Virus record (IMG/VR): IMGVR_UViG_3300032223_002784
Location: 1-64,000 of that record
Strand: one strand, 5' to 3'
DNA length: 64,000 bases
DNA from: a virus
The notes under the pieces were generated by a model. It was given only the letters and a program-made list of their open reading frames with translations, ran no database searches and was not told the origin of the DNA. Position 1 is the first letter of the stretch. Every line of letters begins with the position of its first letter. This document shows positions 1,873 through 62,986 of this stretch, piece by piece. The position numbers and the translations under genes were made by a program.

Positions 1873-2114
1873 TCGGATTCCCCCGCCTTGATTACCACAT
1901 CTTGATTCTTGTTGAATGCTAGGCGTAATTGATAGAATGGTTTGGGTTGTGGGATTTCTGGGTGCAAAATCTCCATATCCCTGATCATGACATAAAACCC
2001 ATTTGGATATACATCATTTTCCCTCATGAGTTGATCAATAACTGCACCAAAGGTAAATTGACCACCATGTAAGGGTTCTTTTGGAACCTCTATATCTAGG
2101 TTATATCTCTCCAT
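1869..2114 (-). CDS. hypothetical protein
   Basis: 81-aa ORF, ATGA overlap with the downstream gene. Confidence 0.65.
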   Translation of the reverse strand: MERYNLDIEVPKEPLHGGQFTFGAVIDQLMRENDVYPNGFYVMIRDMEILHPEIPQPKPFYQLRLAFNKNQDVVIKAGESE

Positions 2115-2197
2115 TATTTGTCCTTATTTCTTGGATCTGTTCTAAATAGCAATATGCATAGTGCTATGACTATACTTGCGTATTGATAGTTACTCAT

Positions 2198-2629
2198 TTA
2201 TACCCCCGAACTTCCAAATCCTGTATCCCCACGCTCTGAAATATTCAGTTGATTGGTTTCAATAAATTCAGCTGATTCCACTCTATGAAATACCATTTGA
2301 GCAATTCTATCGCCTTTGGTTATTTGAAACTTATTCCACTTATCATGGTTGAATAGGATAACCTTAATTTCGCCTCTATATCCAGAATCAATAGTTCCTG
2401 GAGCATTAAGTACAGTTACATTATGATTTGCAGCAACACCAGATCTAGGATTGATATAGCCTACATATCCCTCTGGAATTTCCATTGATATACCTGTAGA
2501 TATGATTTCTTTATCATTACACCATACTACTGTAGTTTCATTAGCATATAGGTCTGCTCCTGCATCCCCCGCCTTTGCATAGGTCGGAAGGATTGCAGAC
2601 GGATCAAGTTTAACTACTTTGACTTGCAT
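2198..2629 (-). CDS. dut: dUTP diphosphatase (trimeric dUTPase)
   Basis: Motifs AGADL, PRSG, GTIDSGYRGEI, GDRIAQ, RGDTGFGSSG. Confidence 0.97.
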   Translation of the reverse strand: MQVKVVKLDPSAILPTYAKAGDAGADLYANETTVVWCNDKEIISTGISMEIPEGYVGYINPRSGVAANHNVTVLNAPGTIDSGYRGEIKVILFNHDKWNKFQITKGDRIAQMVFHRVESAEFIETNQLNISERGDTGFGSSGV

Positions 2630-2789
2630 CTGCTTCTTCCTTTTGCTTGTTTACATAGTCCTGCATAAACTTAACTTGGGCAGCCATATGATTAAACTCC
2701 CGCAAAGCTTTTGCTCTCTTAAGTCTTGCCTTATTTTTTGAGTCCCTTTTAAGGCCTCTCTGCGAGACTGCTACATTGTTCTTCTTCAT
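2610..2789 (-). CDS. small basic hypothetical protein (59 aa)
   Basis: Read manually (MKKNNVAVSQRGLKR...); ATGA-coupled to the upstream gene. Confidence 0.6.
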   Translation of the reverse strand: MKKNNVAVSQRGLKRDSKNKARLKRAKALREFNHMAAQVKFMQDYVNKQKEEADASQSS

Positions 2790-2968
2790 GATTTTGGCGT
2801 TAGTCCTAACTTGTCCATGTACTCTTGCATCTTAGCAAAAACAGCGGAACGCTGTTCTTCTGTTCTGGCTGCCTCCATTTGGCGGTTGAGTTCCGCCATA
2901 TACGGAGTGCTTGGCATTTTTACCATCTTGATATCTTTTGGATCAAAATCTTTAATTTTCTTTTTCAT
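2786..2968 (-). CDS. hypothetical protein
   Basis: 60-aa ORF with GGAGG SD and ATGA overlaps. Confidence 0.65.
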   Translation of the reverse strand: MKKKIKDFDPKDIKMVKMPSTPYMAELNRQMEAARTEEQRSAVFAKMQEYMDKLGLTPKS

Positions 2969-3141
2969 TCTGGGTTATATCCTCCACCCTTATATGGTCC
3001 TAAAAAGGCTTCCATGAAGACTGCAAAGTCTTCATCAGATACTTCTGCTTTATCCATATCTTCGCCCAATTCTTTTACAATTCGTCGCTTTTGCGACTTA
3101 CTTTTAAATTCAATGATATTTTCATTTTCTTTATTTGTCAT
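2965..3141 (-). CDS. hypothetical protein
   Basis: ORF track entry; start moved to MTNKEN, which follows an AAGGAG SD. Confidence 0.6.
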   Translation of the reverse strand: MTNKENENIIEFKSKSQKRRIVKELGEDMDKAEVSDEDFAVFMEAFLGPYKGGGYNPE

Positions 3142-3286
3142 TTCTCTTTCTCCTTTTTCGCTCAATCATGCCGTCTACTTTATCAACATTTAAGCCTAAT
3201 ATTAAAGCAATGATAGGCATTACAAATACCATAAAAGCTAGCCACATTGCTACAAAAATGATTGCATAAACTATTACAGATGTCAT
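3131..3286 (-). CDS. small membrane protein (51 aa)
   Basis: Read manually: MTSVIVYAIIFVAMWLAFMVFVMPIIALILG, then a basic tail. Confidence 0.6.
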   Translation of the reverse strand: MTSVIVYAIIFVAMWLAFMVFVMPIIALILGLNVDKVDGMIERKRRKRNDK

Positions 3287-3498
3287 TCTTCTATCGCCTC
3301 TTGTTCAGGTTCTTTTGTATTTAGATTCTCCCCGTCAGGAGCAGTAACCGCACTGATTGCATAGTATGGGTCTAATTCATTAAAATCCAATAGCTCTAGC
3401 CCCATGCTTTCAGCAAGTTCATATGCTTTTTCATGGTCTTCTGCTTCTACCTCTATATTAGTATAAAGGGTCTTTGTTACTTCAATTAAAAATTTCAT
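3283..3498 (-). CDS. hypothetical protein, DpnD/PcfM-like
   Basis: Pattern F-x-I-E-V...IEVEAED-x-E-x-A-x-E-x-A typical of this small phage family. Confidence 0.55.
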   Translation of the reverse strand: MKFLIEVTKTLYTNIEVEAEDHEKAYELAESMGLELLDFNELDPYYAISAVTAPDGENLNTKEPEQEAIEE

Positions 3499-3689
3499 TG
3501 TTCTGGTTCCGCCCTAGTGTCTGGTGATCTTAGGTAAAATGACATTACCATTAGTTCCCCGCAAAAATGACAGGTAGGAGTTTCATCTATCTGTTTACTC
3601 AAATTAGAATTCATCTCGCCACCGCACTTACAAGTAAACTCATATGTGTGCAAATAGCTTTCCTGTTTTTCGCTCATTTTTCGCTCCAA
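3495..3689 (-). CDS. zinc-ribbon protein
   Basis: YEFTCKCG...PTCHFCG; start probably at the internal MSEK. Confidence 0.6.
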   Translation of the reverse strand: MERKMSEKQESYLHTYEFTCKCGGEMNSNLSKQIDETPTCHFCGELMVMSFYLRSPDTRAEPEQ

Positions 3690-3778
3690 TTTTATAGTTG
3701 GTAATATGAGGGGCAGAGAAGACAGTGCTTTGGACGAGCACTCCCCTCATATCTTTACCTGTCCATGACCAATGTTAT

Positions 3779-4177
3779 TTAGAAGGGTGTGTTACCCGAA
3801 GTATCCCAGACATCATCTGAGCTATTGATTACTCGTGCAGGACTGGAGCTTTTAACATCTGTAAGGCCTACTGAGGTAGCCTTAATTTCAACTACAGAAC
3901 GTTTTGAGCCAGTCTTATCTTCAAACTGACGCTCTCGTGCCTTGCCTAGGATTTGAACGCCAGAGCCCTTTTGGAGCGTGTTGTGCCACTTATCAGCAAG
4001 GTTTCCCCATACTTCAATGTTCCAACCTGACGTATCCTTGTTTACCCAATTGCCCGAAGCATCTTGAGTCCGTTCGTTTGTAACAACCCGAAACTTCAAC
4101 AGATTTCCTGTTGAAAAAGTTTTAAATTCGGGATCTGATGCGAGATTTCCTCGCAGTACCATTTCTGGATTTGGCAT
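3779..4177 (-). CDS. ssb: single-stranded DNA-binding protein (bacterial OB-fold type)
   Basis: LRGNLASDPE, WGNLA, LQKG...G, acidic tail ending in PF. Confidence 0.92.
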   Translation of the reverse strand: MPNPEMVLRGNLASDPEFKTFSTGNLLKFRVVTNERTQDASGNWVNKDTSGWNIEVWGNLADKWHNTLQKGSGVQILGKARERQFEDKTGSKRSVVEIKATSVGLTDVKSSSPARVINSSDDVWDTSGNTPF

Positions 4178-4250
4178 ATCTTTTTCCTTTTCTAGTCGTA
4201 GTAGGACTTTTTAGTCCCGCATTTCAAAGGCTTTCTGCCCTTGAATTCTT

Positions 4251-4280
4251 ATTGTATCACTCTTGTTCTTCATCTGTCAA
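4251..4280 (-). promoter_or_regulatory. SigA-type promoter for ssb
   Basis: TTGACA-N18-TACAAT. Confidence 0.75.
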
Positions 4281-4607
4281 GGGGACAGGCCATTTTTCCC
4301 AATATGGAATACCTTGATCATCATAATCAGAGCCAAGTTTATCTAAGATTTCTTCATTATCTTGCATCACTTCTTTTATAAATGAATCAGATATATTTCC
4401 TTTTGCAGGTACAACAGATCTCCCTGGTGTATATTTTACATGCACTATGTCATGCTTTGGAAGTCCTGTTAAGGCAAAATTAGCTTTATCTTCTACTTCT
4501 GTTAGGCTGTTGCCCATCCCGCCCAACTTATATTTTCCAAAAACTAAATCAAATCTCCATTTTTCCGCATGCATATAATATGTTATTATTACTTCTTTTT
4601 CGCTCAT
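4257..4607 (-). CDS. hypothetical protein
   Basis: ORF track entry; start at MSEKEV gives ATGA coupling to an upstream 24-aa ORF. Confidence 0.6.
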   Translation of the reverse strand: MSEKEVIITYYMHAEKWRFDLVFGKYKLGGMGNSLTEVEDKANFALTGLPKHDIVHVKYTPGRSVVPAKGNISDSFIKEVMQDNEEILDKLGSDYDDQGIPYWEKWPVPLTDEEQE

Positions 4608-5109
4608 TTTCCGTCCCAAAACCAAGCAATGATTCCAATCAAAATTGAAATAATAAGTAAGTTTAATCCTATGCTCATTTGTTTGCCTCCGAATTCTTTA
4701 ACCATTCTACTAATTCTTCACAGTCACATCTTTCTAGACCGTGATGATTTGTCCATTGAACTTTAAAATCACTACCATCTAAATGACGCTGCCAAATTTC
4801 ATTAGCTAATTCTTCACGACATTCTTTATGCATCTTTTTCTTTCTGTTCTTTTACCCAAGCGGATCCAGCGTACTCTTCATAACAATCAATACATAGCTT
4901 TTTATCACCTAGAGGCATATGCCTTTTTCTCACATTCCCGCAATCTGGGCAAGTATTATATATATTGCTCATTTGTAAAATTCAACTCCAACATACCACT
5001 TTAATAAATATAGCCCTATTTCCCATTCATGTTTTACTGGATATCCCCAGTTATGGACATATATTCCTAATGAAAAAGAAGATGTTTGCTTACCATAATT
5101 AATTTTCAT
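4604..5109 (-). other. run of four overlapping micro-ORFs (4604-4678, 4675-4833, 4826-4972, 4969-5109)
   Basis: Read manually: a 24-aa TM peptide, a 52-aa protein, a 48-aa CxxC...CxxC protein and a 46-aa aromatic protein; each overlaps the next by 4-8 nt. Confidence 0.6.
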
Positions 5110-5284
5110 TTTTTGATTTTTCATTTTTTGAAATTAAAATATTAGGAGGAATACTCAAAAATCCGCAGTTCGCAAATCCATCTCCAACATCTATAAATGT
5201 TTCTCCACAACCACAATATCTTAATTCATGAATATCTGTAGGAATAAGAATTTCACTACATTTTCCACATTGCACTTTATTCAT
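5099..5284 (-). CDS. small Cys-rich zinc-binding protein
   Basis: CGKC...CGCG...IDVG. Confidence 0.65.
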   Translation of the reverse strand: MNKVQCGKCSEILIPTDIHELRYCGCGETFIDVGDGFANCGFLSIPPNILISKNEKSKNEN

Positions 5285-5388
5285 TTATGTTCCTTTGATG
5301 TATGTCTGCTTAATGTTTCATTTGCCATGATTCCCGTGCGAACTTCAATTTCCCTCTTGCATATAGTGCATATTACAACCCTGGACAT
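5281..5388 (-). CDS. 35-aa C2H2-like zinc-finger peptide
   Basis: Read manually: MSRVVICTICKREIEVRTGIMANETLSRHTSKEHK, with an AAGGAG SD. Confidence 0.55.
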   Translation of the reverse strand: MSRVVICTICKREIEVRTGIMANETLSRHTSKEHK

Positions 5389-5392
5389 TAAA

Positions 5393-5872: not shown

Positions 5873-5878
5873 GACCTT

Positions 5879-5908
5879 AGTCTATCAAATAGTGTTGTGT
5901 TTTGTCAA
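5879..5908 (-). promoter_or_regulatory. SigA-type promoter, leaderless mRNA
   Basis: TTGACA-N18-TAGACT with the ATG 6 nt downstream. Confidence 0.75.
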
Positions 5909-5934
5909 TAGGAAATTCTTTATCAAACTCAGAC

Positions 5935-6186: not shown

Positions 6187-6192
6187 GTCTTT

Positions 6193-8463: not shown

Positions 8464-8466
8464 GTC

Positions 8467-9012
8467 TTATCTTGACCTTATATTCTTACTTTGTTTAACA
8501 ATTTGAAATGGACCTGCCGTATATGGACTAAGTTTCTCTGCAATTTCTAACGCTTTTTCTACAGTAGCACCTGTATGCAAAGCCCCCACAGCAAATGGTG
8601 CACCCGAACCAACACCATAAATGCCTGTTTGATCCATTAAAACACTAAAATCATCGCTTATGTTGAATAGTTCTCCATCTACAGCCAAAAGAATTTCAAA
8701 TCCAGAATCTTTATCTTCTTTATCAAGCTTATATCCATTTTCTTCAAGTGCTTCTTTCATGGAAGGCACAACATCTGTAATCATATACTTATAAAGATTT
8801 TTTCTTTGTGATGCATTTGGCATTGGTGGAATCCATAGATGCATAAAAATATCACATGCTGCTACATCACCAGCCCCGCCAAGTAAATAGCCGTTGTTAT
8901 TAATAATTTTTGCCATTTGTGGATGAATATGTTTGTTTGTTCCTGCAGTTACTAGACTATCAGCACCCATAATGACATGTCCGTTTTTAACTACACCCAC
9001 AATTGTTGTCAT
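8467..9012 (-). CDS. HslV/proteasome-beta-like Ntn hydrolase
   Basis: N-terminal M-T-T nucleophile, GADS, K, GGAGD, GVGSGAPFAVGAL. Confidence 0.88.
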   Translation of the reverse strand: MTTIVGVVKNGHVIMGADSLVTAGTNKHIHPQMAKIINNNGYLLGGAGDVAACDIFMHLWIPPMPNASQRKNLYKYMITDVVPSMKEALEENGYKLDKEDKDSGFEILLAVDGELFNISDDFSVLMDQTGIYGVGSGAPFAVGALHTGATVEKALEIAEKLSPYTAGPFQIVKQSKNIRSR

Positions 9013-9308
9013 GCTTTACCCAGTTCTCCTAATATTCCCTCGCTTGTACGAGATAGAATTGGTTTGAGGATTTCTCCCTTATTCATAACAAAAATCTGAG
9101 GAATGCTCTTCAGATTATAATATTCTAGCATATTTGCTGTCATTTCGTCAACATCAACCATATAATAATTAGTTTCAGGATCCATTACGGCTACTTTGCC
9201 ATAATGTGGCTTTAATTGTTTACATGGGCTGCACCATGTTGCTGTAAAATAAACTACACATTCATCTTCAGCAATAAATTCATTTACATCATTCGTAACC
9301 TTAAGCAA
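9009..9308 (-). CDS. thioredoxin
   Basis: FTATWCSPCK active site, VDVDE, SIP. Confidence 0.92.
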   Translation of the reverse strand: MLKVTNDVNEFIAEDECVVYFTATWCSPCKQLKPHYGKVAVMDPETNYYMVDVDEMTANMLEYYNLKSIPQIFVMNKGEILKPILSRTSEGILGELGKA

Positions 9309-9531
9309 TTAATTCCTCCGCAGATATTGTTTTACCTAAATAACGACGCTTAATAATGTAATCTCTAACTGAGTCAGCACCATTCTGCCTACCGCCCAAA
9401 ATTACAACCCACCTAGGTTCTAACTTAAGGTCTATACATTCTTGACACATAAATAAATTAACTCCATTAATAATTGCAGATTTAAATGGATGTAGCTGAT
9501 CTTTTTGCTTATCGCACGAAAAGCATTTCAT
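9301..9531 (-). CDS. hypothetical protein (CxxC...CxxC)
   Basis: CFSC...CQEC...EPRWVVIL. Confidence 0.7.
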   Translation of the reverse strand: MKCFSCDKQKDQLHPFKSAIINGVNLFMCQECIDLKLEPRWVVILGGRQNGADSVRDYIIKRRYLGKTISAEELIA

Positions 9532-9749
9532 TCTAATTCTTCCTCTTCTTCAATTTCATCTACATACCCTATGCCTATTTCATCTATAATTATAAAGTCA
9601 TCATTAATAACTTCAATGGTATATCTTATTCCCGCATCATAATATTCAATTATTGATGCATATGCGCCATAAGAAACAATGGTGCCGTAAATGCCTTCAT
9701 CTGAAAGATAAACATACTTTACTGTATCTTCATTTTCATTTATTGACAT
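9528..9749 (-). CDS. hypothetical acidic protein
   Basis: 73-aa ORF within the operon. Confidence 0.7.
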   Translation of the reverse strand: MSINENEDTVKYVYLSDEGIYGTIVSYGAYASIIEYYDAGIRYTIEVINDDFIIIDEIGIGYVDEIEEEEELE

Positions 9750-9993
9750 TTGGAGTTGCTATCCCTTCTATTTCACATGGTGTTCCGTAAGCCATTATTA
9801 ACTGTCTTACCAACAAAAGATATTCCATTAATTGAAATCTTTGGCTTTCATTATATTCCATAACATTCTCTTCATACACGGTTACAGCCAGATAATTAGG
9901 TCTAGCCCTAATATCCATTTTTAAATGCTTTACGGGACATTTAATTTCCCGTATTTTTTTAGCCATTTCAATTGTGTATTGTATTTTTGCCAT
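9736..9993 (-). CDS. hypothetical protein
   Basis: 85-aa ORF within the operon. Confidence 0.7.
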   Translation of the reverse strand: MAKIQYTIEMAKKIREIKCPVKHLKMDIRARPNYLAVTVYEENVMEYNESQRFQLMEYLLLVRQLIMAYGTPCEIEGIATPNVNK

Positions 9994-10303
9994 GAATTTT
10001 TTTCAGTTTCTTCCAAACTTCTTGATCTTTATGTGAATTATGTTGCTTATCTGGTCTTCCAAGATCCATATAAACACCACCCCTTACACCCTTTTCTTTA
10101 TTCTCAATTCCTTCTGCATGACATTGTTTAATAACAGGACAACTCAAACAAACTTGATCTATTTGTTTAGCAAGCTCCTTGTCATTTTCATAATCATCGT
10201 AGAACCAATTGATTGACATATTTTTACAGGCTGCTAAGTGATACCACTTTACATCTAGTTCATCTATCCCAAGCTTTTCAAATAAGTTGGGCATATTTAT
10301 CAC
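9968..10303 (-). CDS. whiB: WhiB-family Fe-S transcription factor
   Basis: W-x3-AAC...VCLSCPVIKQC...GVRGG (variant of the GVWGG turn). Confidence 0.88.
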   Translation of the reverse strand: MINMPNLFEKLGIDELDVKWYHLAACKNMSINWFYDDYENDKELAKQIDQVCLSCPVIKQCHAEGIENKEKGVRGGVYMDLGRPDKQHNSHKDQEVWKKLKKIHGKNTIHN

Positions 10304-10508
10304 TTACATCCCAAGTACCGTCCGACTTTAAACGATAACGATTTGCAAATCCCCACTTGTTATTTCTGAACATGCCTTTTGGATCCATAAAAGCACTTTT
10401 GCTTGGAGCCCATCTTACGATAGTATATCCATCCCAAAAGAAACCTTCTTTTTTGTTTTTTTCAACAAAATTGTGTGCTTGTTCATAATTCAATGTAATT
10501 TTAGCCAT
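10278..10508 (-). CDS. hypothetical protein
   Basis: FFWDGYTIV...G-x-FRNNKWG. Confidence 0.7.
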   Translation of the reverse strand: MAKITLNYEQAHNFVEKNKKEGFFWDGYTIVRWAPSKSAFMDPKGMFRNNKWGFANRYRLKSDGTWDVSDKYAQLI

Positions 10509-10806
10509 TTTTATCTACTCCAAATAGGTTGCGCCAATTGACGAATTGATATGTATTGTTTTGTGAATCTTTAACTTCTGTAGCATTAGCATCGTTATAA
10601 AATACAATTTGTCCAACTTCTAGGGGGACCGTATGAATTCTACCTTCTTGATCTCTTTCTCCTGGTCCAATCGCAATGATTGTCCCACGACTTAATTCTG
10701 CATCAAGAGTAACTGCAGATAAAACAAGTCCTGATGCCGTTGTTCTATCTTCTTGCTCTAGCTTTTCTAGCAATACAAGGCCACCCAATGGCTCAATGTT
10801 TGTCAT
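10501..10806 (-). CDS. groES: co-chaperonin GroES
   Basis: IEPLGGLVL...TASGLVL...GTIIAIGPG...PLEVGQIV. Confidence 0.9.
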   Translation of the reverse strand: MTNIEPLGGLVLLEKLEQEDRTTASGLVLSAVTLDAELSRGTIIAIGPGERDQEGRIHTVPLEVGQIVFYNDANATEVKDSQNNTYQFVNWRNLFGVDKNG

Positions 10807-10839
10807 ATCTTTCCTTTGTTAGTAGGGTTGTTATACTTA

Positions 10840-10869
10840 ATTGTATCATCTAGATACTGTATGTGTCAA
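10840..10869 (-). promoter_or_regulatory. SigA-type promoter for the groES operon
   Basis: TTGACA-N18-TACAAT. Confidence 0.75.
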
Positions 10870-10871
10870 GC

Positions 10872-11240
10872 TTATTCTTTAATGAATCTAAAAGGTATTC
10901 CAAAAGTTTCAAGGATTTTTACGCATGCAAGATTTCTTGATGATGAGCCAAATACCAATGCAAAGTCAGGAGTAGACTCAATTAAAGTAACATCTGAAAA
11001 TGAAGATTTATCTCTAACTAATTCTTCTTTGATTTTATAGCCTTTTTGACGTAAAAATTTTTCAGTCTTACCTATGTATTCAGTGATCATATTTTCAGCA
11101 CCTTTTTGCCCAGTATGAATAAACAAGTATTCTTTGTCATCTGGGAAAAAGTGTTTACGGTCATCCAATAGGACAGTAACTTGACGAATTAATTCGCTGT
11201 AATCTGTCCATTCTTTACTACCAAAAACTAATACTCTCAT
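10872..11240 (-). CDS. SLOG-superfamily (YspA/DUF2493-like) protein
   Basis: MRVLVFGSKEWTDY...IHTG-x-KGAE...PDFALVF. Confidence 0.7.
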   Translation of the reverse strand: MRVLVFGSKEWTDYSELIRQVTVLLDDRKHFFPDDKEYLFIHTGQKGAENMITEYIGKTEKFLRQKGYKIKEELVRDKSSFSDVTLIESTPDFALVFGSSSRNLACVKILETFGIPFRFIKE

Positions 11241-11260
11241 GATTTCTCCTTTGTTAAATG

Positions 11261-11287
11261 CAAGAGGACGGGGTTACCGTCCTCTTG
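11261..11287 (-). terminator. hairpin / probable terminator
   Basis: CAAGAGGACGG-loop-CCGTCCTCTTG perfect inverted repeat. Confidence 0.65.
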
Positions 11288-11309
11288 AATATATATACGT
11301 ATATATGGT

Positions 11310-11945
11310 TTAAAGTTTTGGAATTAGTGGAGCACTGAAAGCTCCGCCCCAAATTGACTTTTTCATTTCTGCTTTTTCATCTGCTGGAGTTTCTTTTGCA
11401 GCTTCTTCTTTAGATTCTGCTTCATCCGCAGCTTTACCCATGCAATCGCAAAGACTCATAGCCTTACCGCAATCTGCACATGTATCTGCTTTAGCAATTT
11501 CATCTGCCTTTTCAAGCTCTTCAGTTACTTCATCAGATGATGCTGCTTTTTCAACTTTCTCAGCTGGTAGTGTTTGACCACACTCTGAGCAAGTTCCTGC
11601 CTTAGCAATGTTAACAGTATCTGCTACCGCCAAATCCTCTGAAGTTGGAGCAATTGCTGCGCCTTCTGCTGGAAATGTCTCGTTTGTAGGTACTGGACCT
11701 TCTGGTGCATCTGTAACTGATTGATCGCCAGCAGGTGCTGTTGCACCACTGATTACCTTTGTTACTGCAATATCACCCTGTGGATCTGGTTCTGTTGTAT
11801 TTTCCATTGTATTACCTCCGTCCCTTACATAATTTTCAACGCTTCTTTCGTCACGCTCTTCATTAATTGAAGATGAAGTTCCAATGGCCTTTGTAAGAGC
11901 ATCTTTTACATCATCTATAAATTTATTAATCTCTTGTGTATTCAT
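11310..11945 (-). CDS. acidic low-complexity protein with CxxC motifs (possible internal head protein)
   Basis: Repeated [ILVM]-x-K-[AS] sites; C-terminal SIWGGAF. Confidence 0.7.
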   Translation of the reverse strand: MNTQEINKFIDDVKDALTKAIGTSSSINEERDERSVENYVRDGGNTMENTTEPDPQGDIAVTKVISGATAPAGDQSVTDAPEGPVPTNETFPAEGAAIAPTSEDLAVADTVNIAKAGTCSECGQTLPAEKVEKAASSDEVTEELEKADEIAKADTCADCGKAMSLCDCMGKAADEAESKEEAAKETPADEKAEMKKSIWGGAFSAPLIPKL

Positions 11946-12184
11946 TATGCGTGTGACCCCGCTTCAGTTGATGCGATTGGTCCACCAGCATGCTGAGGTG
12001 TTGTCATTGATACATCTTTACCAGTGAAAGATGTTCCAACATTAAGAGTCCCTGCGTTATTTACACCGAGATCTACTTGTGGTGCAGCAGCCAATGCTGA
12101 TGCAGGACCTGCTTGCTCTGTAACTGGTGTTGCTGATGAAGGTTGCTCTACGCCACCCTCTGTACCTTGTTGATTATTATCCAT
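11945..12184 (-). CDS. small disordered acidic protein
   Basis: 79-aa ORF with GGCGGTGA SD, coupled to the next gene. Confidence 0.65.
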   Translation of the reverse strand: MDNNQQGTEGGVEQPSSATPVTEQAGPASALAAAPQVDLGVNNAGTLNVGTSFTGKDVSMTTPQHAGGPIASTEAGSHA

Positions 12185-12217
12185 ATTTAAATCACCGCCT
12201 TATTGTCTTATTATACC

Positions 12218-12559
12218 CTAAAACTCGTCTTCTGCAGAACCATCTAAATCAAATCCCTGCTCTATAAGACGGGCTTTTCCTTCTTCTGAAATAGACATTT
12301 GTGCATTCAGATTTTCATCATATGAGACATCTATTAGTCCTTCTTGATATAAATCAATTAAAACTTTGTCCATATCATCTACCATTACTTGATGTAAGTC
12401 TGGCATAACTTCTTCCAAAACTTCCATATCAAACATATAAATTGGTTCACCATCTTCATCTACGCCGTCAAAAATAGCAGCACCTTCACTAACAAGGTAA
12501 TCCATTATTCTTGCATGCTCTTCATCTGAAGGATCATATTCCAATTTGCACTTCCTCAT
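12218..12559 (-). CDS. hypothetical acidic protein
   Basis: 113-aa ORF after a TATAAT box. Confidence 0.7.
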   Translation of the reverse strand: MRKCKLEYDPSDEEHARIMDYLVSEGAAIFDGVDEDGEPIYMFDMEVLEEVMPDLHQVMVDDMDKVLIDLYQEGLIDVSYDENLNAQMSISEEGKARLIEQGFDLDGSAEDEF

Positions 12560-12579
12560 TTCTTATTATACCTTATTTG

Positions 12580-12652
12580 CGCCCTTAGAGAGATTTGAAC
12601 TCCCGACCTTATCGGTAGAAACGATCTGCTCTATCCACTGAGCTATAAGGGC
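12580..12652 (-). tRNA. tRNA-Arg(TCT)
   Basis: GCCCTTA acceptor stem, anticodon loop TTTCTAC, GTTCAAATC T-arm. Confidence 0.93.
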
Positions 12653-12653
12653 A

Positions 12654-12727
12654 TGGCAGGGATAGTAGGAATTGAACCCACTCCAAGAGGTTTGGAATCT
12701 CTTGTGCTACCGTTACACTATATCCCA
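12654..12727 (-). tRNA. tRNA-Trp(CCA)
   Basis: Anticodon loop TTCCAAA, GGTTCAATTCC T-arm, encoded CCA. Confidence 0.9.
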
Positions 12728-12728
12728 G

Positions 12729-12800
12729 CTTCCCGTCGTGGATTCGGACCACGATTCTTGGCTTCAAAGGCCAATGTCCTGCCAGTTGGACGAACGGGAA
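12729..12800 (-). tRNA. tRNA-Gln(TTG)
   Basis: TTGGC-CTTTGAA-GCCAA anticodon arm; TTCCCGT/ACGGGAA acceptor. Confidence 0.92.
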
Positions 12801-12854
12801 ATGAAAAAGGCCTTCATTTAAGAAGACCTTTTATCAAGTTATAATTGTATTATA

Positions 12855-13295
12855 CTATGGCTTTAAGGTCGCTGTCAATTGCCATTGCCAAAAATTATGC
12901 TTGTCTAATCTATCAGCAAGAAAATTAACTAATCCTTGTTCGTCTAACTTGTTTGCATTATCGCATGCTCTTTTTAGCATAGCAATAACCACAATATTTG
13001 TTGAAGATAATTCTTGTAGCATTTGTTTGGCGGATATGTCCGAACTATTATTAGTAATTAAATCACTATTGTGACTCCATGTTTCTAATCCAAATGGTGC
13101 TTTAAATCCAAGTTTTCTCATGTTTTCTGAAATTGGATCAATTGATTCATAAACATCTGAATAAATTTTTAAAAGAAATTTATGGTATTGTGGAAAATTA
13201 GATCCTTCAACATTCCAATGATACCCATGTGATTGAATATACATTTTAACTACCATTGATTGTAGTTTAATTAAATCTTGTTCTAACTCATTCAT
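12855..13295 (-). CDS. dps: Dps / ferritin-like DNA protection protein
   Basis: HGYHWNVEGSNFPQYH...IDPISENMRKLG...H-x2-W-x-WQL. Confidence 0.92.
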   Translation of the reverse strand: MNELEQDLIKLQSMVVKMYIQSHGYHWNVEGSNFPQYHKFLLKIYSDVYESIDPISENMRKLGFKAPFGLETWSHNSDLITNNSSDISAKQMLQELSSTNIVVIAMLKRACDNANKLDEQGLVNFLADRLDKHNFWQWQLTATLKP

Positions 13296-13585: not shown

Positions 13586-13717
13586 TTATTTTGATGCTTT
13601 AGCGTAACCAGTCTTTTTCTTATTCATGGAACCAGGTTTCTTAAACCCCGCACCTTTAGGCATGCTTGCAATACGAATTTCTAGTGCTTTTGCAACTTTA
13701 TGTTGTTTTTGAGTCAT
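13586..13717 (-). CDS. 43-aa highly basic peptide
   Basis: Read manually: MTQKQHKVAKALEIRIASMPKGAGFKKPGSMNKKKTGYAKASK, with an AAAGGA SD. Confidence 0.65.
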   Translation of the reverse strand: MTQKQHKVAKALEIRIASMPKGAGFKKPGSMNKKKTGYAKASK

Positions 13718-14368: not shown

Positions 14369-15388
14369 TTATTGGTTTGAGCTACCCTTTGGGCTAGATG
14401 AATTACCATATCCTACTGATGGCTTGCCATCATGTTGTGGAGGGCTATTATAAGTAGATTGCCACCCAGTATCCCCTTCAATTGAGCCATAGTTTGTACC
14501 AGACATCGCATCACCTAGTGGCAGAAATATTCCGTCCCATATAGATGTTGAATCTTTTGTTGGAGTAGGATTTGCTGACTTAGTTACATCTGGTTGATTT
14601 ACCGCAATTGCATTCATAGCTTCCTGTGCATGTTCTTTGGTTGTATAACATCCAATTACCTGCCCTGTACCTGCCTTTAGGATTGCATAGCCACCTTGAC
14701 AGTCTGGAACATTAAATTCAATTTTAAATCCATATCCACCAGATAGAATATCTTTTTCAATTTTATTTTCTTTATTTACTATGGCACGAGACCAGGCATA
14801 ACCTGCATCTCCGCCCCAAGCATTCCACATAATTTTTCCATGTGATGGCTTGTCCCAATCTTTACCCTTTTTATCAACTTCATGACGTGAAAAGAAAGAA
14901 TACATTCTTTTAACTGTATCAAGGGACATTGATCTTCCTGCAACAATATCACTTGCACGACCCCAACCTACAGGAGTTCCTGCACCTGTTGCCATACCAG
15001 CATCTCTCCACTTTAACGCACGACGTGCTGCTGCTTTCATGCCTGCGTTTGGTTGATAACCGCCGTCTGATTTTTTGACGGGAATACAATTAGGAACAGT
15101 TTTGCCATCTTGATCTTTAGTCCCTGCGTATTCATATCCATCCCAGCAAGGTCCTTGACCTTTATCAATACATGATGTGCATTTTTCTGTATCTGAAATA
15201 TAATGATGATCATTTCCTAGATCATCACATCCACAAGTCATACACTTTTTAACATCTTTAACATTAGCATATAATGCAGCAAGTTGATCTTGTGCTTTCT
15301 TTTTAGATGGATGAGTTCCAACCACTTTACCAGTATTAGTTGCAATTACTGCAAATTTATCTCCAACTTGTTTAATATTATATGGCAT
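14369..15388 (-). CDS. multi-module hypothetical protein (probable virion/head-associated)
   Basis: Duplicated module (VVGTHPSKKKAQDQLAALYAN / VIGCYTTKEHAQEAMNAIAVN); PCWDGY...VPNC module; TVKRMYSFFSRH...WGGDAG module. Confidence 0.7.
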   Translation of the reverse strand: MPYNIKQVGDKFAVIATNTGKVVGTHPSKKKAQDQLAALYANVKDVKKCMTCGCDDLGNDHHYISDTEKCTSCIDKGQGPCWDGYEYAGTKDQDGKTVPNCIPVKKSDGGYQPNAGMKAAARRALKWRDAGMATGAGTPVGWGRASDIVAGRSMSLDTVKRMYSFFSRHEVDKKGKDWDKPSHGKIMWNAWGGDAGYAWSRAIVNKENKIEKDILSGGYGFKIEFNVPDCQGGYAILKAGTGQVIGCYTTKEHAQEAMNAIAVNQPDVTKSANPTPTKDSTSIWDGIFLPLGDAMSGTNYGSIEGDTGWQSTYNSPPQHDGKPSVGYGNSSSPKGSSNQ

Positions 15389-15873
15389 TATTGCTCCTTA
15401 TCTGTTTTAATTATATCACTAACTTTACGAGATTTAATACTATTATTAGGTATTACCTCTGCTGCAGGCTTAGTTCCTGCCTTTCTAAACCTAAGAGACT
15501 CCCACAAAGCGTGGGGTAAAGTATGAATGCCGTAGTGTGTTCTATGATGATTTGTGCATAATACTTCAAGATTTCCTGGACTTTCCAGCCATTCAGCAAA
15601 TTCTTGGTCATTTGTAAAATGTAAGCCAAAATACTCTTCTATTTTATGCTTATCAGCATTTGGTATTTGACTAAATTCTACATGTGTGTGGTGTAATTCT
15701 GGTTGACCTCCACATAAATCATCATTAATGACACATTTCCAAAGTCCCGCCTTTTTAATCTTTTTTTTAGCTGCAATAAAGAATTTATAGTTTGGGTCTT
15801 TTTCTCGTGGATCATGTTCTGGAATATGTGCCAGAATTGAAAAAGTCATATTTTGATCATGTGCATCTGTCAT
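15388..15873 (-). CDS. HNH-like (His-Me finger) protein
   Basis: C-x5-C...ELHH...NLEVLCTNHH; start moved to MTDAHD because the track start lies inside tRNA-Gly. Confidence 0.65.
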   Translation of the reverse strand: MTDAHDQNMTFSILAHIPEHDPREKDPNYKFFIAAKKKIKKAGLWKCVINDDLCGGQPELHHTHVEFSQIPNADKHKIEEYFGLHFTNDQEFAEWLESPGNLEVLCTNHHRTHYGIHTLPHALWESLRFRKAGTKPAAEVIPNNSIKSRKVSDIIKTDKEQ

Positions 15874-15894
15874 TATAAATCTATTATACATTAT

Positions 15895-15968
15895 TGGAGC
15901 GAATAGCGGGAATTGAACCCGCACATTAACCTTGGCAAGGTTACGCACTACCACTATGCAATATTCGC
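15895..15968 (-). tRNA. tRNA-Gly(GCC)
   Basis: TAACC-TTGCCAA-GGTTA anticodon arm, GCGAATA acceptor, encoded CCA. Confidence 0.95.
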
Positions 15969-23672: not shown

Positions 23673-23998
23673 TATGCCCCATATCTTGCAGAATACTTAA
23701 GAGCATCTACTAGTCTATTTATTGCTTCTTCTGCTGTGTAGTATACGTTCTTCTTTTTTGCATTCTCCCCGCCTTTTTCAAAGGTGGTATAGTATCTAGA
23801 AAGGACTGCAAATTTAGCACTGAGAGCTTGCATCTTTACTATAAGATCAGGAGCCTTAGATGAAGGAACATCTGGCTTGGCAATTAACTTGATAATTAAA
23901 TCAAGTGCAAAGTCTAGATCTTTATCGTTCATAAAATCTTTGAGATCATTGAATTCTGTTAATTCACTAATTAATTCAATAGTTGGCTTTTCTGTCAT
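23672..23998 (-). CDS. hypothetical protein
   Basis: 108-aa ORF ending LVDALKY, coupled in the recombination operon. Confidence 0.75.
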   Translation of the reverse strand: MTEKPTIELISELTEFNDLKDFMNDKDLDFALDLIIKLIAKPDVPSSKAPDLIVKMQALSAKFAVLSRYYTTFEKGGENAKKKNVYYTAEEAINRLVDALKYSARYGA

Positions 23999-24177
23999 TC
24001 CATAATCCTAACACAGAATTGACATGGATCTCCGCCTTCTTCCCATTCATTTTCTTCTTCTTCTGTTAAAGATGGAACGCCATCGTGTGTGGCACAAAAC
24101 ATATCTGTAATCCAACCACGCTCAACTCCATTATTAAACCAAATTTGAAATTCATTAAGGTCTTCATCTTTAATCAT
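23995..24177 (-). CDS. hypothetical protein
   Basis: GVERGWI...CATHDG...GGDPC. Confidence 0.75.
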   Translation of the reverse strand: MIKDEDLNEFQIWFNNGVERGWITDMFCATHDGVPSLTEEEENEWEEGGDPCQFCVRIME

Positions 24178-25830: not shown

Positions 25831-26064
25831 TTATTCGGTTTCTGCTTGCTCTTCCTCTGGCTTATCAGCCAAAGTAAAAGTCAAAGCCTTAGTAGTTTCA
25901 TCTTGGTTAACTGCAATATTCTTACCAGAATAATCTTTGATTAGATTTTCTAGAGATACCTCAACTGATCCAAGTGTTGTTAGAATTGATGCTAGGATTT
26001 GTTCAACTGAAATTTGAACGTTACCATCTGCTTCAACTGCCTCTTGTGTTGTCTCTTCTGTCAT
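25831..26064 (-). CDS. hypothetical acidic protein
   Basis: GGAGGTG SD; coupled to dnaE. Confidence 0.7.
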   Translation of the reverse strand: MTEETTQEAVEADGNVQISVEQILASILTTLGSVEVSLENLIKDYSGKNIAVNQDETTKALTFTLADKPEEEQAETE

Positions 26065-32940: not shown

Positions 32941-33155
32941 TTCTTTCCTTTACCCTTAGTCAATTCATCTTCAATTTCGTTAACTTTTTCCATTAACTTG
33001 TTCTCAACGAAAGTATACACCCTATTGGTGGCTTCATCAATACTTTCATTGTCCCTCTTAAAATCTTCAATTCCAATTCCAACCTTAAGGCTTTCATAAT
33101 TTCCTAGGTTGCGAGTAAATTGTAATTCAACCTTAACGTTCGTTTGGTTCGTCAT
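32937..33155 (-). CDS. hypothetical protein
   Basis: FTRNLGNYESLK motif. Confidence 0.75.
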   Translation of the reverse strand: MTNQTNVKVELQFTRNLGNYESLKVGIGIEDFKRDNESIDEATNRVYTFVENKLMEKVNEIEDELTKGKGKK

Positions 33156-33372
33156 CTTTTACATCGTCCCTTTCAATTAAAGCAAACCCTGGCTTAAACT
33201 TCTTAGTACCTTTGTCTGCAAGATGCTGATACAACATCATCAGTCTGTCTGATATGGCTATCATACCATCTAGGTCATCCTTTTGTCCAGCGATCTCCAT
33301 TGCATATTCTAAAACTCTAATTGCTGAATCTAATACTTGTTTTGCTTCTTTACTTAATTTATCATTTACCAT
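33133..33372 (-). CDS. hypothetical protein
   Basis: 79-aa ORF within the operon. Confidence 0.7.
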   Translation of the reverse strand: MVNDKLSKEAKQVLDSAIRVLEYAMEIAGQKDDLDGMIAISDRLMMLYQHLADKGTKKFKPGFALIERDDVKDDEPNER

Positions 33373-60129: not shown

Positions 60130-60132
60130 TCA

Positions 60133-60450
60133 TCACCCCTCCATTTGCATAAAGCCAAGTCCTTCATTAATTCCAAAGCCTTCACTTGATGCAACATTAC
60201 TACTCTTTAATTCTGTAATATCATTTGGCGTTTCATCTTCTTCAATGTCAACACCATTTACAGCAGCAGTAAATCTTTTGTCATCATTGTCTTTCTTTCT
60301 AAGTGCCTCTATAATTACTATAAGCTCTTCTAAAGAAAGACTGCTTTCTAATTCGTCAAAGTTTTTCCAATGACCAAGTAGAAATACTTCGGACTCCAAG
60401 GAGCGTAGGTCTAGTTCGTCCCAACTAGTGCCGCTCCCAGAAGGTTTGGG
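60133..60450 (-). CDS. tail assembly chaperone, frameshift-extended C-terminal part (gpT-like)
   Basis: -1 frame is open from the slippery site through WDELDLRSLESEVFLLGHWKNF. Confidence 0.8.
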   Translation of the reverse strand, partial: PKPSGSGTSWDELDLRSLESEVFLLGHWKNFDELESSLSLEELIVIIEALRKKDNDDKRFTAAVNGVDIEEDETPNDITELKSSNVASSEGFGINEGLGFMQMEG

Positions 60451-60746
60451 TCTGTCAACTTCAAACCACCGCAGATTTCAAGAATCTTCATCATGGTAGG
60501 GACTTCAATAATTTCTTCAAACTTATCTTTATCTACAGATAGTTCAGGGCGTAGTGTTTCTAAGCAGACCATTGCTGCTTTGATAAAAATGTCCATAGCA
60601 ATATCTTCAGATGAGTTTTCCTCAAGATCCATTTCTCTAATTACAGTCATGAATTTTCTTAATTGCTTTATAGGTAGGGGTTTCAGAGTCAGTACTGACC
60701 CATCAACTAGTTCAATCTCTAATACATCATATATTGTCGTTGCCAA
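60411..60746 (-). CDS. tail assembly chaperone (gpG-like)
   Basis: Lies between the major tail and tape measure genes; LKPLPIKQLRKFM. Confidence 0.85.
   Translation of the reverse strand: MATTIYDVLEIELVDGSVLTLKPLPIKQLRKFMTVIREMDLEENSSEDIAMDIFIKAAMVCLETLRPELSVDKDKFEEIIEVPTMMKILEICGGLKLTDPNLLGAALVGTN
60444..60450 (-). other. -1 programmed ribosomal frameshift site C CCA AAC
   Basis: XXXYYYZ heptamer in the correct frame near the end of gpG. Confidence 0.8.
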
Positions 60747-60802
60747 TTTATAGCTCCTTTTGTTAGTTAAATTATACCAATAAATTGAGCATATACAAAT
60801 TC

Positions 60803-60830
60803 AAAGACCCCGCCTTTTATTGACGGGGCC
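60803..60830 (-). terminator. probable terminator after the major tail gene
   Basis: GCCCCGTC-AATAAAA-GGCGGGGT followed by CTTT. Confidence 0.6.
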
Positions 60831-60862
60831 CCTGAGTACAATATTAAATTGTTATTAAGTTT

Positions 60863-61654
60863 TTAGTAAGCACCGTATACACGGTCAATAACGACACCAT
60901 ATTCCATACCTGAGTATGCTGGATCGCTATCTGGTAAGCAACGGAAGTTCACTGGGAACACTGTTGCTGCATCACGCTTAAGCGCATGCATTGTTGTATC
61001 AATAGAAACAACACGACGTGCAACATATACACGCTCTTTTTGACGAGCAACTGAAGTAGTTGAACCTATACCTACTGTTACTCCTGCATCTGCTGTAGTT
61101 ACTGAAGCACCAATCTGTGCTGGAGCTTGTCCAACTGCAACTAGAGTGCGCTCTACTGGAGCATCTCCCAATGCACCTGCAGCCATTTTTAATGTTGCTG
61201 CTGGAGAATCTACTGATGTGTAAATAGTAGAATCGTTAGGAATCAAGGTTGTAACTGCTTGAACAGCGGTTCCAGATGAGTTTGTTCCATATACATAGTC
61301 AAGTTGACCCCATGAAAGTTGAAGATTCTCAAGAGTTGCCTCTGTAAGTTCTGTCTTAAGCATAACCTTTAGAGATTGCTTAAATAGACGAGCTGCGTCA
61401 AGAAGCTGATCTACTGCTACTTCGCCGTATGAAGGTTCGTAAGAAACTTCAAATCCTGTTGCTGTATATCCAACCTCACGGAATAGATTAGATGCAAGAA
61501 GACCTGAGCGAGCTGATGTTGTATTATTTGATCCGAACAATGTTGTTAGGTCAGATGCTTTTGTAGTTGGGCGTTGCTGATCGTTTGAGCTGTTTCCAAC
61601 GCTAACGAAAATAGATGCTGCACCAACAATAATATTTTTTGTATTTGTAGCCAT
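60863..61654 (-). CDS. major tail protein
   Basis: NIIVGAA, VGYT-x2-G, P-x-YGEV-x-VDQLLD, EATLENL, FPVNFRCLP; position in the tail module. Confidence 0.88.
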   Translation of the reverse strand: MATNTKNIIVGAASIFVSVGNSSNDQQRPTTKASDLTTLFGSNNTTSARSGLLASNLFREVGYTATGFEVSYEPSYGEVAVDQLLDAARLFKQSLKVMLKTELTEATLENLQLSWGQLDYVYGTNSSGTAVQAVTTLIPNDSTIYTSVDSPAATLKMAAGALGDAPVERTLVAVGQAPAQIGASVTTADAGVTVGIGSTTSVARQKERVYVARRVVSIDTTMHALKRDAATVFPVNFRCLPDSDPAYSGMEYGVVIDRVYGAY

Positions 61655-61754
61655 TTTTTTTATTTCACCACCTTATTTATTTTTAGATTAAAAAAAAGAT
61701 GACATTTTACTTCCTCATAGAAAATCATATCATCAATGTCTAATAAATCAAAGT

Positions 61755-62270
61755 TTAAGCATATCTTCCAGTAATTGGGTCTAGGTCTCTGACATAGGCA
61801 TATGAGATTGAAATATCTCCACTCATAAACCCGCCTTCATCTGTAAAAGATTGAACTGGGTCTGCAGAGTCTAGCCTAAAATACATAAACTTAAATGGGC
61901 TATTTGGGGTCAATTGAACATTTATATCCCCCGCTGATTGATCATATCTTCTGAATAGATCAACTAAAAAGTTGGTAATTGCTTGTATTTGAGCACCATT
62001 TCTTGAAATAATTTCAAGCATAATTACTTCCTCAGACATCCACCAGCTAACACCTGTTTGTTTTTGCTGAATATCATATGTGAAATATGGTTTTCCAGGC
62101 AATAGGTTGTTCATTTCTGGTATTTGCTGTGCTGGAAAAATTGGTATTAATGCATCTGTAAATCCATCTGCAAAATAATCACTTGCTTTAAAAAGTCCTG
62201 CATTTTGTAGTTCTAGCCATATTGCATTTATAACATCCCTAGAAGCTACTTTTGTGTAGTCTGGAGTCAT
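61755..62270 (-). CDS. tail terminator-like protein
   Basis: Directly upstream of the major tail gene; PIFPAQQIPE. Confidence 0.6.
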   Translation of the reverse strand: MTPDYTKVASRDVINAIWLELQNAGLFKASDYFADGFTDALIPIFPAQQIPEMNNLLPGKPYFTYDIQQKQTGVSWWMSEEVIMLEIISRNGAQIQAITNFLVDLFRRYDQSAGDINVQLTPNSPFKFMYFRLDSADPVQSFTDEGGFMSGDISISYAYVRDLDPITGRYA

Positions 62271-62986
62271 GATATCACATCCATTCCGCCACTAATACTG
62301 TTGGCAATTTTTGCTACTGCTGTTTTTACTTGTGAAACTTTTTGTCCATTTGTGCTTAAAACTAATGATACATCATTTGCTATTTTTTCATATACTCCAG
62401 ATGAATCCATGATGGTGTTTCCATTCCTTACATACCAATCATACATAAATGATTCAAAAGATCCTTTTGTTTGAATACCGCCTGGATGAGCTATGTTGAT
62501 GGTAGTTCCAGGTCTGATGAATACCATTCCGTTTCCGCCCATAAATGCTAAAACTCTTCTTGCAGTAAAAGAAACCATGTTTCCTGATTCCATTACACTT
62601 GCTTTATCTTTAAAAATGCTTCTTCGTGAAACGATTTTTCCAGTTCTTCCTGGGGATAATAACTCAGGGTTAATTGGAACTGGCATTTTAGATGGAAGAA
62701 ATCTTGAAGATATAATTAGATCTCCACCAATTACGGACGAACGTTCTAAAACAAACAATCTTTTTGTTGAGTTTCCAATTGAGCCCCATTCATAAACATG
62801 GTGCATTTTCTTAGGATTTCTTCTAGCATAGTTGTCTGCTGCCTTCATAAATCTTTCACCAGTAATAGCAAATGTTGCTTTTCCAAGTTCTTCTAAAACT
62901 GATGGGGATGTTAAAGCTTTGACTCCCGCCAATTTATTTTGAACTTCTTCCATAAGTTGCTTAGTATCAATTTGAAGTTGGATCAT
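62267..62986 (-). CDS. neck/tail-completion protein
   Basis: HHVYEW-x3-G...RLF, F-x2-KA-x-VME-x-G; position in the module. Confidence 0.55.
   Translation of the reverse strand: MIQLQIDTKQLMEEVQNKLAGVKALTSPSVLEELGKATFAITGERFMKAADNYARRNPKKMHHVYEWGSIGNSTKRLFVLERSSVIGGDLIISSRFLPSKMPVPINPELLSPGRTGKIVSRRSIFKDKASVMESGNMVSFTARRVLAFMGGNGMVFIRPGTTINIAHPGGIQTKGSFESFMYDWYVRNGNTIMDSSGVYEKIANDVSLVLSTNGQKVSQVKTAVAKIANSISGGMDVIS

Follow-up and report, generated by a model that had tools for sequence, protein, structure and literature searches.

The 64,000-nucleotide stretch analysed in this work (hereafter, the window) corresponds to bases 1-64000 of the IMG/VR record IMGVR_UViG_3300032223_002784, a single viral contig of 91,984 bp with a GC content of 36.9%, and it carries the pentamer GCGGG about once per kilobase, mostly in one orientation. 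The analysis of these sites revealed that their excess is not explained by codon usage and that their polarity follows the genome strand and not the gene strand; since the one-strand bias is maintained whichever way the local genes point, the signal is a directional one residing at the DNA level. Polar over-represented oligomers are rare, and each of the known classes, i.e., Chi, the FtsK-orienting polar sequences (KOPS), and primase sites, reports a DNA-tracking machine and its direction. In this phage, GCGGG, with an optimum close to GGCGGGA(T), would be a selected polar signal, read on one strand by a DNA-tracking enzyme moving in one predominant direction, and the reader that we tentatively favor is a helicase-nuclease of the host, for which the motif would work as a Chi-like site. 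The motif is written about 90 times in the genome despite a strong CpG depletion and a neutral C-rich skew of the genes, and it is maintained by turnover across the clade. The sites and the genes referred to in the text are reported in Table 1.

Over-representation of the GCGGG pentamer

The exact count on the + strand of the window is 66 CCCGC versus 15 GCGGG, the mononucleotide expectation being roughly 16 and 10, respectively. A previous inspection of the same letters (the sequence-only reading) had put these numbers at about 65 and 14, and the example sites that it listed (1882, 2568, 4216, 9631, 22093, 30385, 44194, 53614, and 62925) are all present. Over the whole contig, the + strand harbors 90 CCCGC and 25 GCGGG. 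Genes were called by a greedy longest open reading frame (ORF) approach, with no trained gene finder. When synonymous codons were shuffled in such a way that both the proteins and the codon usage were kept, 18.7 +/- 3.9 sense copies of GCGGG were expected versus the 82 observed (z 16), so that this word ranked first among the 1024 pentamers in the codon-preserving 5-mer test that the sequence-only reading had proposed; a swap chain preserving all dinucleotides, including those at the codon junctions, raised the expectation to 31.1 +/- 4.5, with a z of 11. In agreement with the claim that the sites occur in several frames and between genes, the excess was found in all three reading frames (60, 16, and 6 sense copies in frames 0, 1, and 2 versus 13.4, 4.4, and 0.9 expected) and in the intergenic regions (7 copies versus about 1 expected). 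Genome-wide, 60 of the 82 in-gene sense copies write an Ala-Gly pair as GCG-GGN, and the share of GCG among the Ala codons, which is about 3% elsewhere, reaches 27% ahead of Gly. The shuffles replaced a maximal-order Markov z-score, which misses CCCGC because the sub-words of CCCGC carry the signal themselves, whereas a dicodon-preserving shuffle is uninformative, since frame-0 and frame-1 pentamers sit within one dicodon.

Part of the frame-0 excess is a by-product of the constraints acting on the codons that precede Gly. Codons ending in C never occur ahead of Gly (the genome being devoid of CCGG), and codons ending in A are under-used ahead of GG, thus avoiding the Shine-Dalgarno-like AGG; because of these two facts, ACG-GG and TCG-GG are raised about 2-fold, while GCG-GG is raised 4.5-fold. 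Shine-Dalgarno-like words (GGAGG, AAGGA, and AGGAG) are strongly avoided within genes (z from -5 to -7). The same avoidance pushes Gly-Gly toward GGC-GGN, and this leads to an excess of about 2-fold of GGCGG followed by A, C, or T, which was disclosed in all clades, mainly in frame 0, and which is best explained by the avoidance of GGA-GGN. It might be argued on this basis that the whole GCGGG signal is a by-product, due to codon-pair bias, to the avoidance of CCGG/CGCG and of Shine-Dalgarno-like AGG, to the relic of a GC-rich ancestor, or to the evasion of Type III restriction, a system whose cleavage requires a pair of sites in inverse orientation. This possibility appears extremely improbable and is already largely refuted: GCG-GG is not raised 2-fold but 4.5-fold, the excess extends to all frames, to the intergenic regions, and to the strand antisense to the genes of the minority-strand modules (see below), it survives the dinucleotide-preserving chain, and it is missing from a sister clade that shares the avoidance of CCGG/CGCG and of the Shine-Dalgarno-like words; moreover, none of these processes would yield an even spacing. 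As for restriction, all the 36 EcoP15I sites of phage T7 share one orientation, and they resemble GCGGG in being a short asymmetric word with a single orientation genome-wide; however, in T7 one orientation is avoided, whereas in this phage both exceed expectation, the major one 6-9-fold. Type III restriction evasion, which predicts that one orientation is depleted, was rejected accordingly.

The motif has a consensus of the type D-GCGGG-D, with no C at positions -1 and +5, G favored at -1, and A favored at +5, i.e., (G)GCGGG(A), and the flanking preferences are identical in the two orientations. The longer the word, the stronger the excess: 3.4-fold for GCGGG preceded by A, T, or C, 9-fold for GGCGGG, 10.6-fold for GGCGGGA, and 20-fold for GGCGGGAT. 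The reverse complements of these words are similarly enriched in respect to their own expectation.

Table 1. Position in the window of the motif sites and of the phage genes discussed in the text.
Feature	Start	End	Strand	Remarks
Array of 66 GCGGG sites (CCCGC on the + strand)	1882	62929	-	Mean spacing about 1 kb
Intergenic site, major orientation	4216	4220	-	Further ones at 13647, 50477, and 60809
Minor-orientation site, + strand early-gene module	25	29	+	Grouped with 1130-1134 and 1628-1632
Minor-orientation site within a - strand gene (example)	8286	8290	+	One of 12 scattered (8286 ... 56402, 63778), about 2-fold over expectation
GCGGG...CCCGC inverted pair	15906	15922	.	T-arm of tRNA-Gly (15895-15968); incidental, no signal site
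Large terminase (TerL)	16861	18702	-	G-rich form of the motif on the sense strand of TerL and structural genes
Cas4-family exonuclease, phage recombination module	22887	23672	-	Protein family scan
UvsX/RecA-like recombinase, phage recombination module	24656	25654	-	Protein family scan
DnaE-type DNA polymerase III alpha	26064	29339	-	Marker for collecting the 78 relatives
DnaG-type primase, CHC2 zinc finger (PF01807) and Toprim, 319 aa	30096	31055	-	Domain matches; candidate reader under the primase hypothesis
DnaB-like replicative helicase	31392	32633	-	Protein family scan

Polarity of the motif

Nearly all the genes of the contig lie on the - strand, between about 1.6 and 85.9 kb; the + strand hosts a short module that runs through the contig ends, covering 85.9-92 kb and 0-1.4 kb. 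In order to separate the strand of the genome from that of the genes, the minority-strand modules of four genomes (G000, which is this contig, G003, G004, and G005) were pooled, for a total of 40 kb; these genomes are related and not fully independent. When the local sense strand of these modules was scanned without bias, the top words were CCGCC (37 versus 6.9 expected) and CCCGC (35 versus 11.5), the latter being the reverse complement of the motif, while GCGGG was found 18 times (7.5 expected). The same picture emerged from the codons: Pro-Ala is written as CCC-GCN in 46% of the cases (23/50) in the minority genes and in 10% (31/300) in the majority genes (p 1.3e-8), CCC accounting for 5.6% of the other Pro codons, and Ala-Gly is written as GCG-GGN in 24% (167/710) of the cases in the majority genes and in 15% (7/48) in the minority genes, GCG accounting for 3.4% of the other Ala codons. 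At matched slots, the major orientation is enriched 7-8-fold and the minor one about 2-fold; when a motif-free codon model is taken as the reference, the enrichment is 6.2-fold in the majority genes and 9.3-fold in the minority ones for the major orientation, and 2.6-fold and 5.6-fold, respectively, for the minor one. This matched-slot test, in which Ala-Gly and Pro-Ala codons are compared in opposite modules, separates genome-strand from gene-strand signals, and it may be reusable whatever the reader of the motif is.

In both types of module, the sense strand is rich in C at neutral 4-fold sites, without a genome-strand component, and therefore the G-rich motif opposes the background skew; a simple G skew was rejected as the source of the signal for this reason. 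A signal acting on mRNA or on translation was also rejected, as the excess involves all the frames, the intergenic regions, and the strand antisense to the genes of the minority modules, and a codon-pair or translational bias is likewise at odds with the fact that genes of opposite orientation have the reverse complement enriched on their sense strand. The alternative contemplated by the sequence-only reading, according to which the orientation would simply follow gene strand and G skew, fails on both counts, since the reverse complement tops the local sense strand of the minority modules, where neutral sites are C-rich. Its inference of a polar signal at the DNA level is borne out instead: the signal survives the shuffles preserving codons and junction dinucleotides, and it is independent of gene strand and G skew.

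No polarity switch was found anywhere on four complete or near-complete genomes. The three opposite-orientation sites at 25, 1130, and 1628 had previously been taken as a hint that the polarity flips near 1-1.6 kb; the sites exist, but the flip is not supported, because both orientations coexist in the + strand module, which harbors CCCGC at about the usual density (85931, 86486, 89563, 90330, 90525, and 91221) together with GCGGG (88094, 88812, 88970, 89310, 25, and 1130). In the four genomes, about 10% of the minor-orientation sites are one half of a hairpin, e.g., the T-arm of a tRNA or a stem resembling a terminator. In two cases, a minor and a major site are separated by 45-49 nucleotides (25239/25284 and 41326/41374), and the same distances recur in G005 and G003.

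A polarity that is uniform genome-wide whatever the gene direction, together with a G-rich motif having an extended optimum of about 8 nucleotides (the 20-fold enrichment of GGCGGGAT), is also what could be expected of a cue similar to KOPS or to the SpoIIIE recognition sequences (SRS), orienting a motor such as an FtsK/SpoIIIE-type pump of the host, or acting in packaging or entry. We consider such a cue very improbable. KOPS/SRS octamers are recognized by the gamma domain of FtsK/SpoIIIE and their polarity switches at dif, and no switch exists on the four genomes; the minor orientation is enriched and not avoided; no FtsK-like gene was found among the phage proteins scanned; and, as far as packaging is concerned, we know of no terminase needing sequence cues.

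Spacing of the sites

In G000, the gaps between sites have a coefficient of variation (CV) of 0.73, a value that is hardly compatible with uniform placement (P about 0.0004-0.0007) or with a slot-aware null, i.e., random placement among synonymous slots (P 0.0003); short gaps are depleted, and the largest gap does not exceed 3.8 kb. Control words cluster instead, with a gap CV of 1.1-1.6. In respect to the slot-aware null, the even spread described by the sequence-only reading holds for G000 and also for G003 (CV 0.79, P <0.0003), and it does not extend to G004 (CV 0.88, P 0.09) and G005 (CV 1.00, P 0.41).

Distribution and turnover of the motif in related phages

A set of 78 relatives was gathered from IMG/VR by means of DnaE, and eight long contigs were fetched. 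All the relatives sharing at least 71% DnaE identity are enriched in GCGGG on the DnaE-sense strand, with 0.4-1.2 sites per kb, and in whole-genome in-place shuffles GCGGG is their top word. The sister clade (about 66% DnaE identity) is mostly without the motif, and its genomes G006-8 write Ala-Gly as GCG-GGN in 3% of the cases; G009 and its kin carry the motif in the GGCGGG form. No replacement polar word was found in the motif-less G006-8, where the top words were CTGGA, GCTGG, and GGCGGA and where minority-strand genes cover only 4 kb. GCGGG is not enriched in the Streptomyces phage BillNye. In this phage, GATC is absent (491 copies expected), GCCGGC and GACGTC are almost absent, and the first 60 nucleotides recur at 124,822, indicating a direct terminal repeat of about 2.26 kb.

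In a codon alignment of 40 DnaE sequences, the sites are patchy and a few of them are conserved within clades. Between genomes sharing about 65% amino acid identity, 10-15 of the 51 aligned sites are common, roughly what conserved Ala-Gly pairs and a high GCG usage predict. Individual sites turn over, yet their density stays, and therefore selection acts on the density and on the coverage of the sites.

Words of the restriction-site type show a similar variation between lineages. CCGG is completely absent from 8/8 freshwater genomes (59-169 copies expected) and from 77 of the 78 DnaE loci, CGCG is at zero in seven of the eight freshwater genomes, and single lineages have dropped TCGA (0/308 in G000), GCGC, ACGT, GGCC, or GTAC to zero; the observed/expected ratio of CpG is 0.45-0.6 in the window and in the eight freshwater genomes. 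This looks like a layered avoidance of restriction sites, with one family-wide target plus several lineage-specific ones. Judging from the distribution of GCGGG in the genomes compared, its clade pattern also looks host-driven, the motif being apparently gained and lost between lineages as in restriction-site avoidance.

The comparison of relatives bears directly on the possibility that GCGGG is a primase start site, at which the DnaG-type primase and the DnaB-like helicase of the phage would start Okazaki primers on the lagging-strand template during a mostly unidirectional replication. In a CpG-poor genome with 37% GC, the chance frequency of such a site would be as low as one per 5-8 kb, and selection would lift it to about one per kb and even out the spacing. 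The phage encodes a primase with a CHC2 zinc finger and a Toprim domain, the helicase, SSB, and DnaE, the spacing of about 1 kb is more even than chance, and the polarity is maintained on one strand genome-wide without a switch; for its priming, an AT-rich replicon poor in CpG would require a GC-rich word of this kind, distributed evenly on one strand at intervals of about 1 kb. Pentamers (GGGTC and others) serve as the sites of T7 primase, and a primer starting with pppG could be templated by the trinucleotide 5'-GCG-3'. The likeness to the T7 sites (GGGTC, TGGTC, and GTGTC) and to the trinucleotide starts of DnaG involves the size, the strand specificity, and the Okazaki-like spacing, and the T7 sites are read on a single-stranded DNA template by a zinc-finger primase, an enzyme that this phage also possesses. 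However, the presence of GCGGG does not follow the similarity of the zinc fingers: in this region of the primase, G009 (with the motif) and G006 (without it) are 87% identical, whereas G000 and G004, both bearing the motif, are 53% identical, and the same set of replisome genes is present in the sister clade devoid of the motif. This lack of correspondence between motif and zinc domain, although an indirect piece of evidence, weakens the primase hypothesis. Furthermore, the about 2-fold enrichment of the minor orientation is not confined to one replichore but involves the entire genome, and the skews at 4-fold sites, lacking a genome-strand component, give no replication direction. A primase start site is thus possible but doubtful, and we ranked it second, after the Chi-like site; if it were correct, the phage would clearly exemplify an AT-rich replicon in which Okazaki start sites have been selected genome-wide.

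The fact that both orientations are enriched and have identical flanking preferences (G at -1, A at +5, C excluded from both positions) may also suggest double-stranded DNA sites, bound by a phage or host protein (a nucleoid or boundary protein, or a repressor-like stoperator system) or targeted by a DNA-modifying enzyme. Three small proteins without an assigned family, encoded at 23995-24177, 25831-26064, and 33133-33372 and specific to the motif-bearing group, could be regarded as candidates, but G009 carries the motif and lacks all three, and the protein scans gave credible support to no methyltransferase, nickase, or modification gene. Sites of this kind would have no need for a polarity extending over the genome, and the 7-8-fold enrichment of the major orientation at matched slots, versus about 2-fold for the minor one, argues against them. 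The stoperators of cluster A mycobacteriophages share with GCGGG the presence of many asymmetric copies over an actinophage-related genome; nevertheless, they are 13 bp long, intergenic, about 30 in number, and oriented with transcription, whereas the GCGGG sites (5-8 bp, about 90 copies) are mostly located inside coding sequences with an orientation independent of transcription. On the whole, double-stranded DNA sites appear improbable.

A Chi-like site as a candidate function

The sequence-only reading had listed primase, Chi-like, and KOPS-like functions. They are not decisively separable by sequence alone; the comparative data weigh somewhat against the primase, and the function that we placed first, although we propose it with caution, is that of a Chi-like attenuator or recombination hotspot for a helicase-nuclease of the host, which is probably actinobacterial. 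In such a model, the helicase-nuclease would load at a free double-strand end, provided, for instance, by a collapsed fork, by the tail of a concatemer or rolling circle, or by the genome end that is injected first; on meeting the motif from its 3' side, the enzyme would switch from degradation to the loading of a RecA-type protein and to recombination. A site in the protective orientation every kilobase or so would limit the chewing from any end, and when a break has two ends, the opposite one would be served by the minor orientation, with its weaker excess of about 2-fold. This excess fits a Chi-like site better than a lagging-strand primase site, since the ends of a break need opposite orientations, and a polarity that ignores transcription would point to a reader tracking one strand in one predominant direction. 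The features of the motif are those of a Chi-type site, i.e., a short, asymmetric, and G-rich word, with one orientation over-represented (90 versus 25) and a polarity independent of gene strand.

The reader would be host-encoded (AdnAB or a RecBCD-type enzyme) rather than phage-encoded; its identity, its direction of travel, and the host itself are all inferred. We hold it to be so because the motif appears to be gained and lost like restriction-site avoidance and tracks no replication or recombination gene of the phage. PHROGs and Pfam scans of about 50 proteins revealed no nickase, helicase-nuclease, Gam-like protein, or methyltransferase of credible score, and the genes specific to the motif-bearing genomes (thioredoxin, Cpn10, SLOG, ferritin, and the three small orphans) are either unrelated to DNA recognition or absent from G009; both observations favor a host-encoded reader. 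The phage RecA/Cas4 pair, suggested as the reader by the sequence-only reading, did not hold up, as nothing ties the pair to the motif and both genes are equally present in the motif-less sister clade. Dense nicks of the T5 type were rejected as well, given that about 90 one-strand nicks are implausible and that no nickase emerged from the protein scans.

The Chi sites of AddAB are short, G-rich, and contain GCGG (AGCGG in Bacillus subtilis and GAAGCGG in Staphylococcus aureus). Together with the GCTGGTGG of Escherichia coli, read by RecBCD, they resemble the motif of the phage in being G-rich and asymmetric, in the GCGG core that it contains, in the over-representation of both orientations with a strand bias of about 3:1, and in the directional reading of single-stranded DNA, which for GCGGG is a proposal. 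The difference is that GCGGG is known from phage sequences, and its recognition by a helicase-nuclease is a prediction.

An additional term of comparison is represented by phages rich in Chi. The lambdoid phage LLS has 20 versus 3 Chi sites, one per 1.86 kb, and the Pseudomonas phage MD8 has 32 versus 0; in both, the strand with the active orientation is the sense one for the genes of the terminase and of the structural proteins (Genome Res 2025, PMC12315714). Like the Chi sites of these two phages, which have no Rec module, GCGGG is a short, G-rich, strongly over-represented word, mostly in one orientation, which coincides with the sense strand of TerL and of the structural genes; there is approximately one site per 1-2 kb, and sites come and go. 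Unlike them, it is a pentamer (with an optimum of about 7-8 nucleotides) whose reader is inferred, it is distributed evenly genome-wide rather than at one end, and it belongs to a phage that retains a recombinase and an exonuclease and whose uncultured host is probably a member of Actinobacteria, a phylum with no known Chi.

Several points weigh against a Chi-like function. Differently from the Chi-rich lambdoid phages, this phage is equipped with a recombination module of its own, which comprises a UvsX-like recombinase, a Cas4-like exonuclease, and resolvases, and to our knowledge no Chi has been described for the actinobacterial AdnAB. The defining property of Chi would be its over-representation in the host in co-orientation with replication, and the counts reported here come from phage genomes alone; the term protective orientation itself embodies an assumption about genome ends, packaging, and replication direction. 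The spacing is significantly even in only two of the four genomes (G000 and G003), which, as the pooled set, are relatives of one another, and the gene calls are greedy. A literature search on GCGGG in phages, on the over-representation of primase sites, and on actinobacterial Chi returned nothing specific.

If GCGGG were a Chi-like site, it would represent a cheaply testable candidate for the control of end resection in Actinobacteria and a marker linking uncultured phages to their hosts. A more specific version, in which GCGGG/GGCGGGA(T) is the Chi of an AdnAB or RecBCD-type end-resection machine belonging to a lineage of freshwater Actinobacteria (uncultured and low in GC) whose phages have copied it, is rather unlikely. 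Were it true, this would be the first Chi-type regulatory sequence for Actinobacteria, discovered from phage DNA alone, and the motif-bearing and motif-less sister clades would mark a host switch.

Gene content and probable host of the phage

The gene set of the contig comprises a DnaE-type polymerase, a DnaG-type primase, a DnaB-like helicase, SSB, a UvsX/RecA-like recombinase, a Cas4-family exonuclease, resolvases, TerL, very large tail proteins, and six tRNAs. The closest phages are those of the Streptomyces cluster BE, with identities of 57% for DnaE, 64% for TerL, and 55% for the major capsid protein. The sequence was found in 19 sequencing runs, all from lake and freshwater metagenomes, with no RNA dataset listed among the 19. 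Two promoter-like sites of the type TGTCAG-N10-TAnnnT, which we take to be the actinobacterial RecA-NDp/PafBC promoter type, are located upstream of early + strand ORFs, at genome positions 91,473-91,494 and 91,799-91,820 (0.11 expected in that locus); none is present in the 64-kb window. The host is probably actinobacterial, and a scan of genome contigs with the phage epimerase as a query returned only a 27% match, in a metagenome-assembled genome of Ichthyobacteriaceae (Bacteroidota).

The three small orphan ORFs (- strand; 60, 77, and 79 aa in the order given above) are embedded in the replication module and match no Pfam family; 3/3 close relatives share them, whereas G009 and about 15 loci of the sister clade do not have them. 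The six tRNA genes (Arg-TCT, Trp, Gln, Gly-GCC, Met, and Asn) form two clusters between 12579 and 16529 on the - strand, and the ORF called at 15388-15954 overlaps the tRNA-Gly gene and is probably too long. A cluster of auxiliary, host-like genes (8467-13295, - strand) encodes an HslV-family peptidase, thioredoxin, Cpn10/GroES, and SLOG-like and ferritin-like proteins. The homologues of Cpn10 that were found are all located on contigs not exceeding about 110 kb, which were taken as phage contigs, suggesting the existence of a phage-specific clade.

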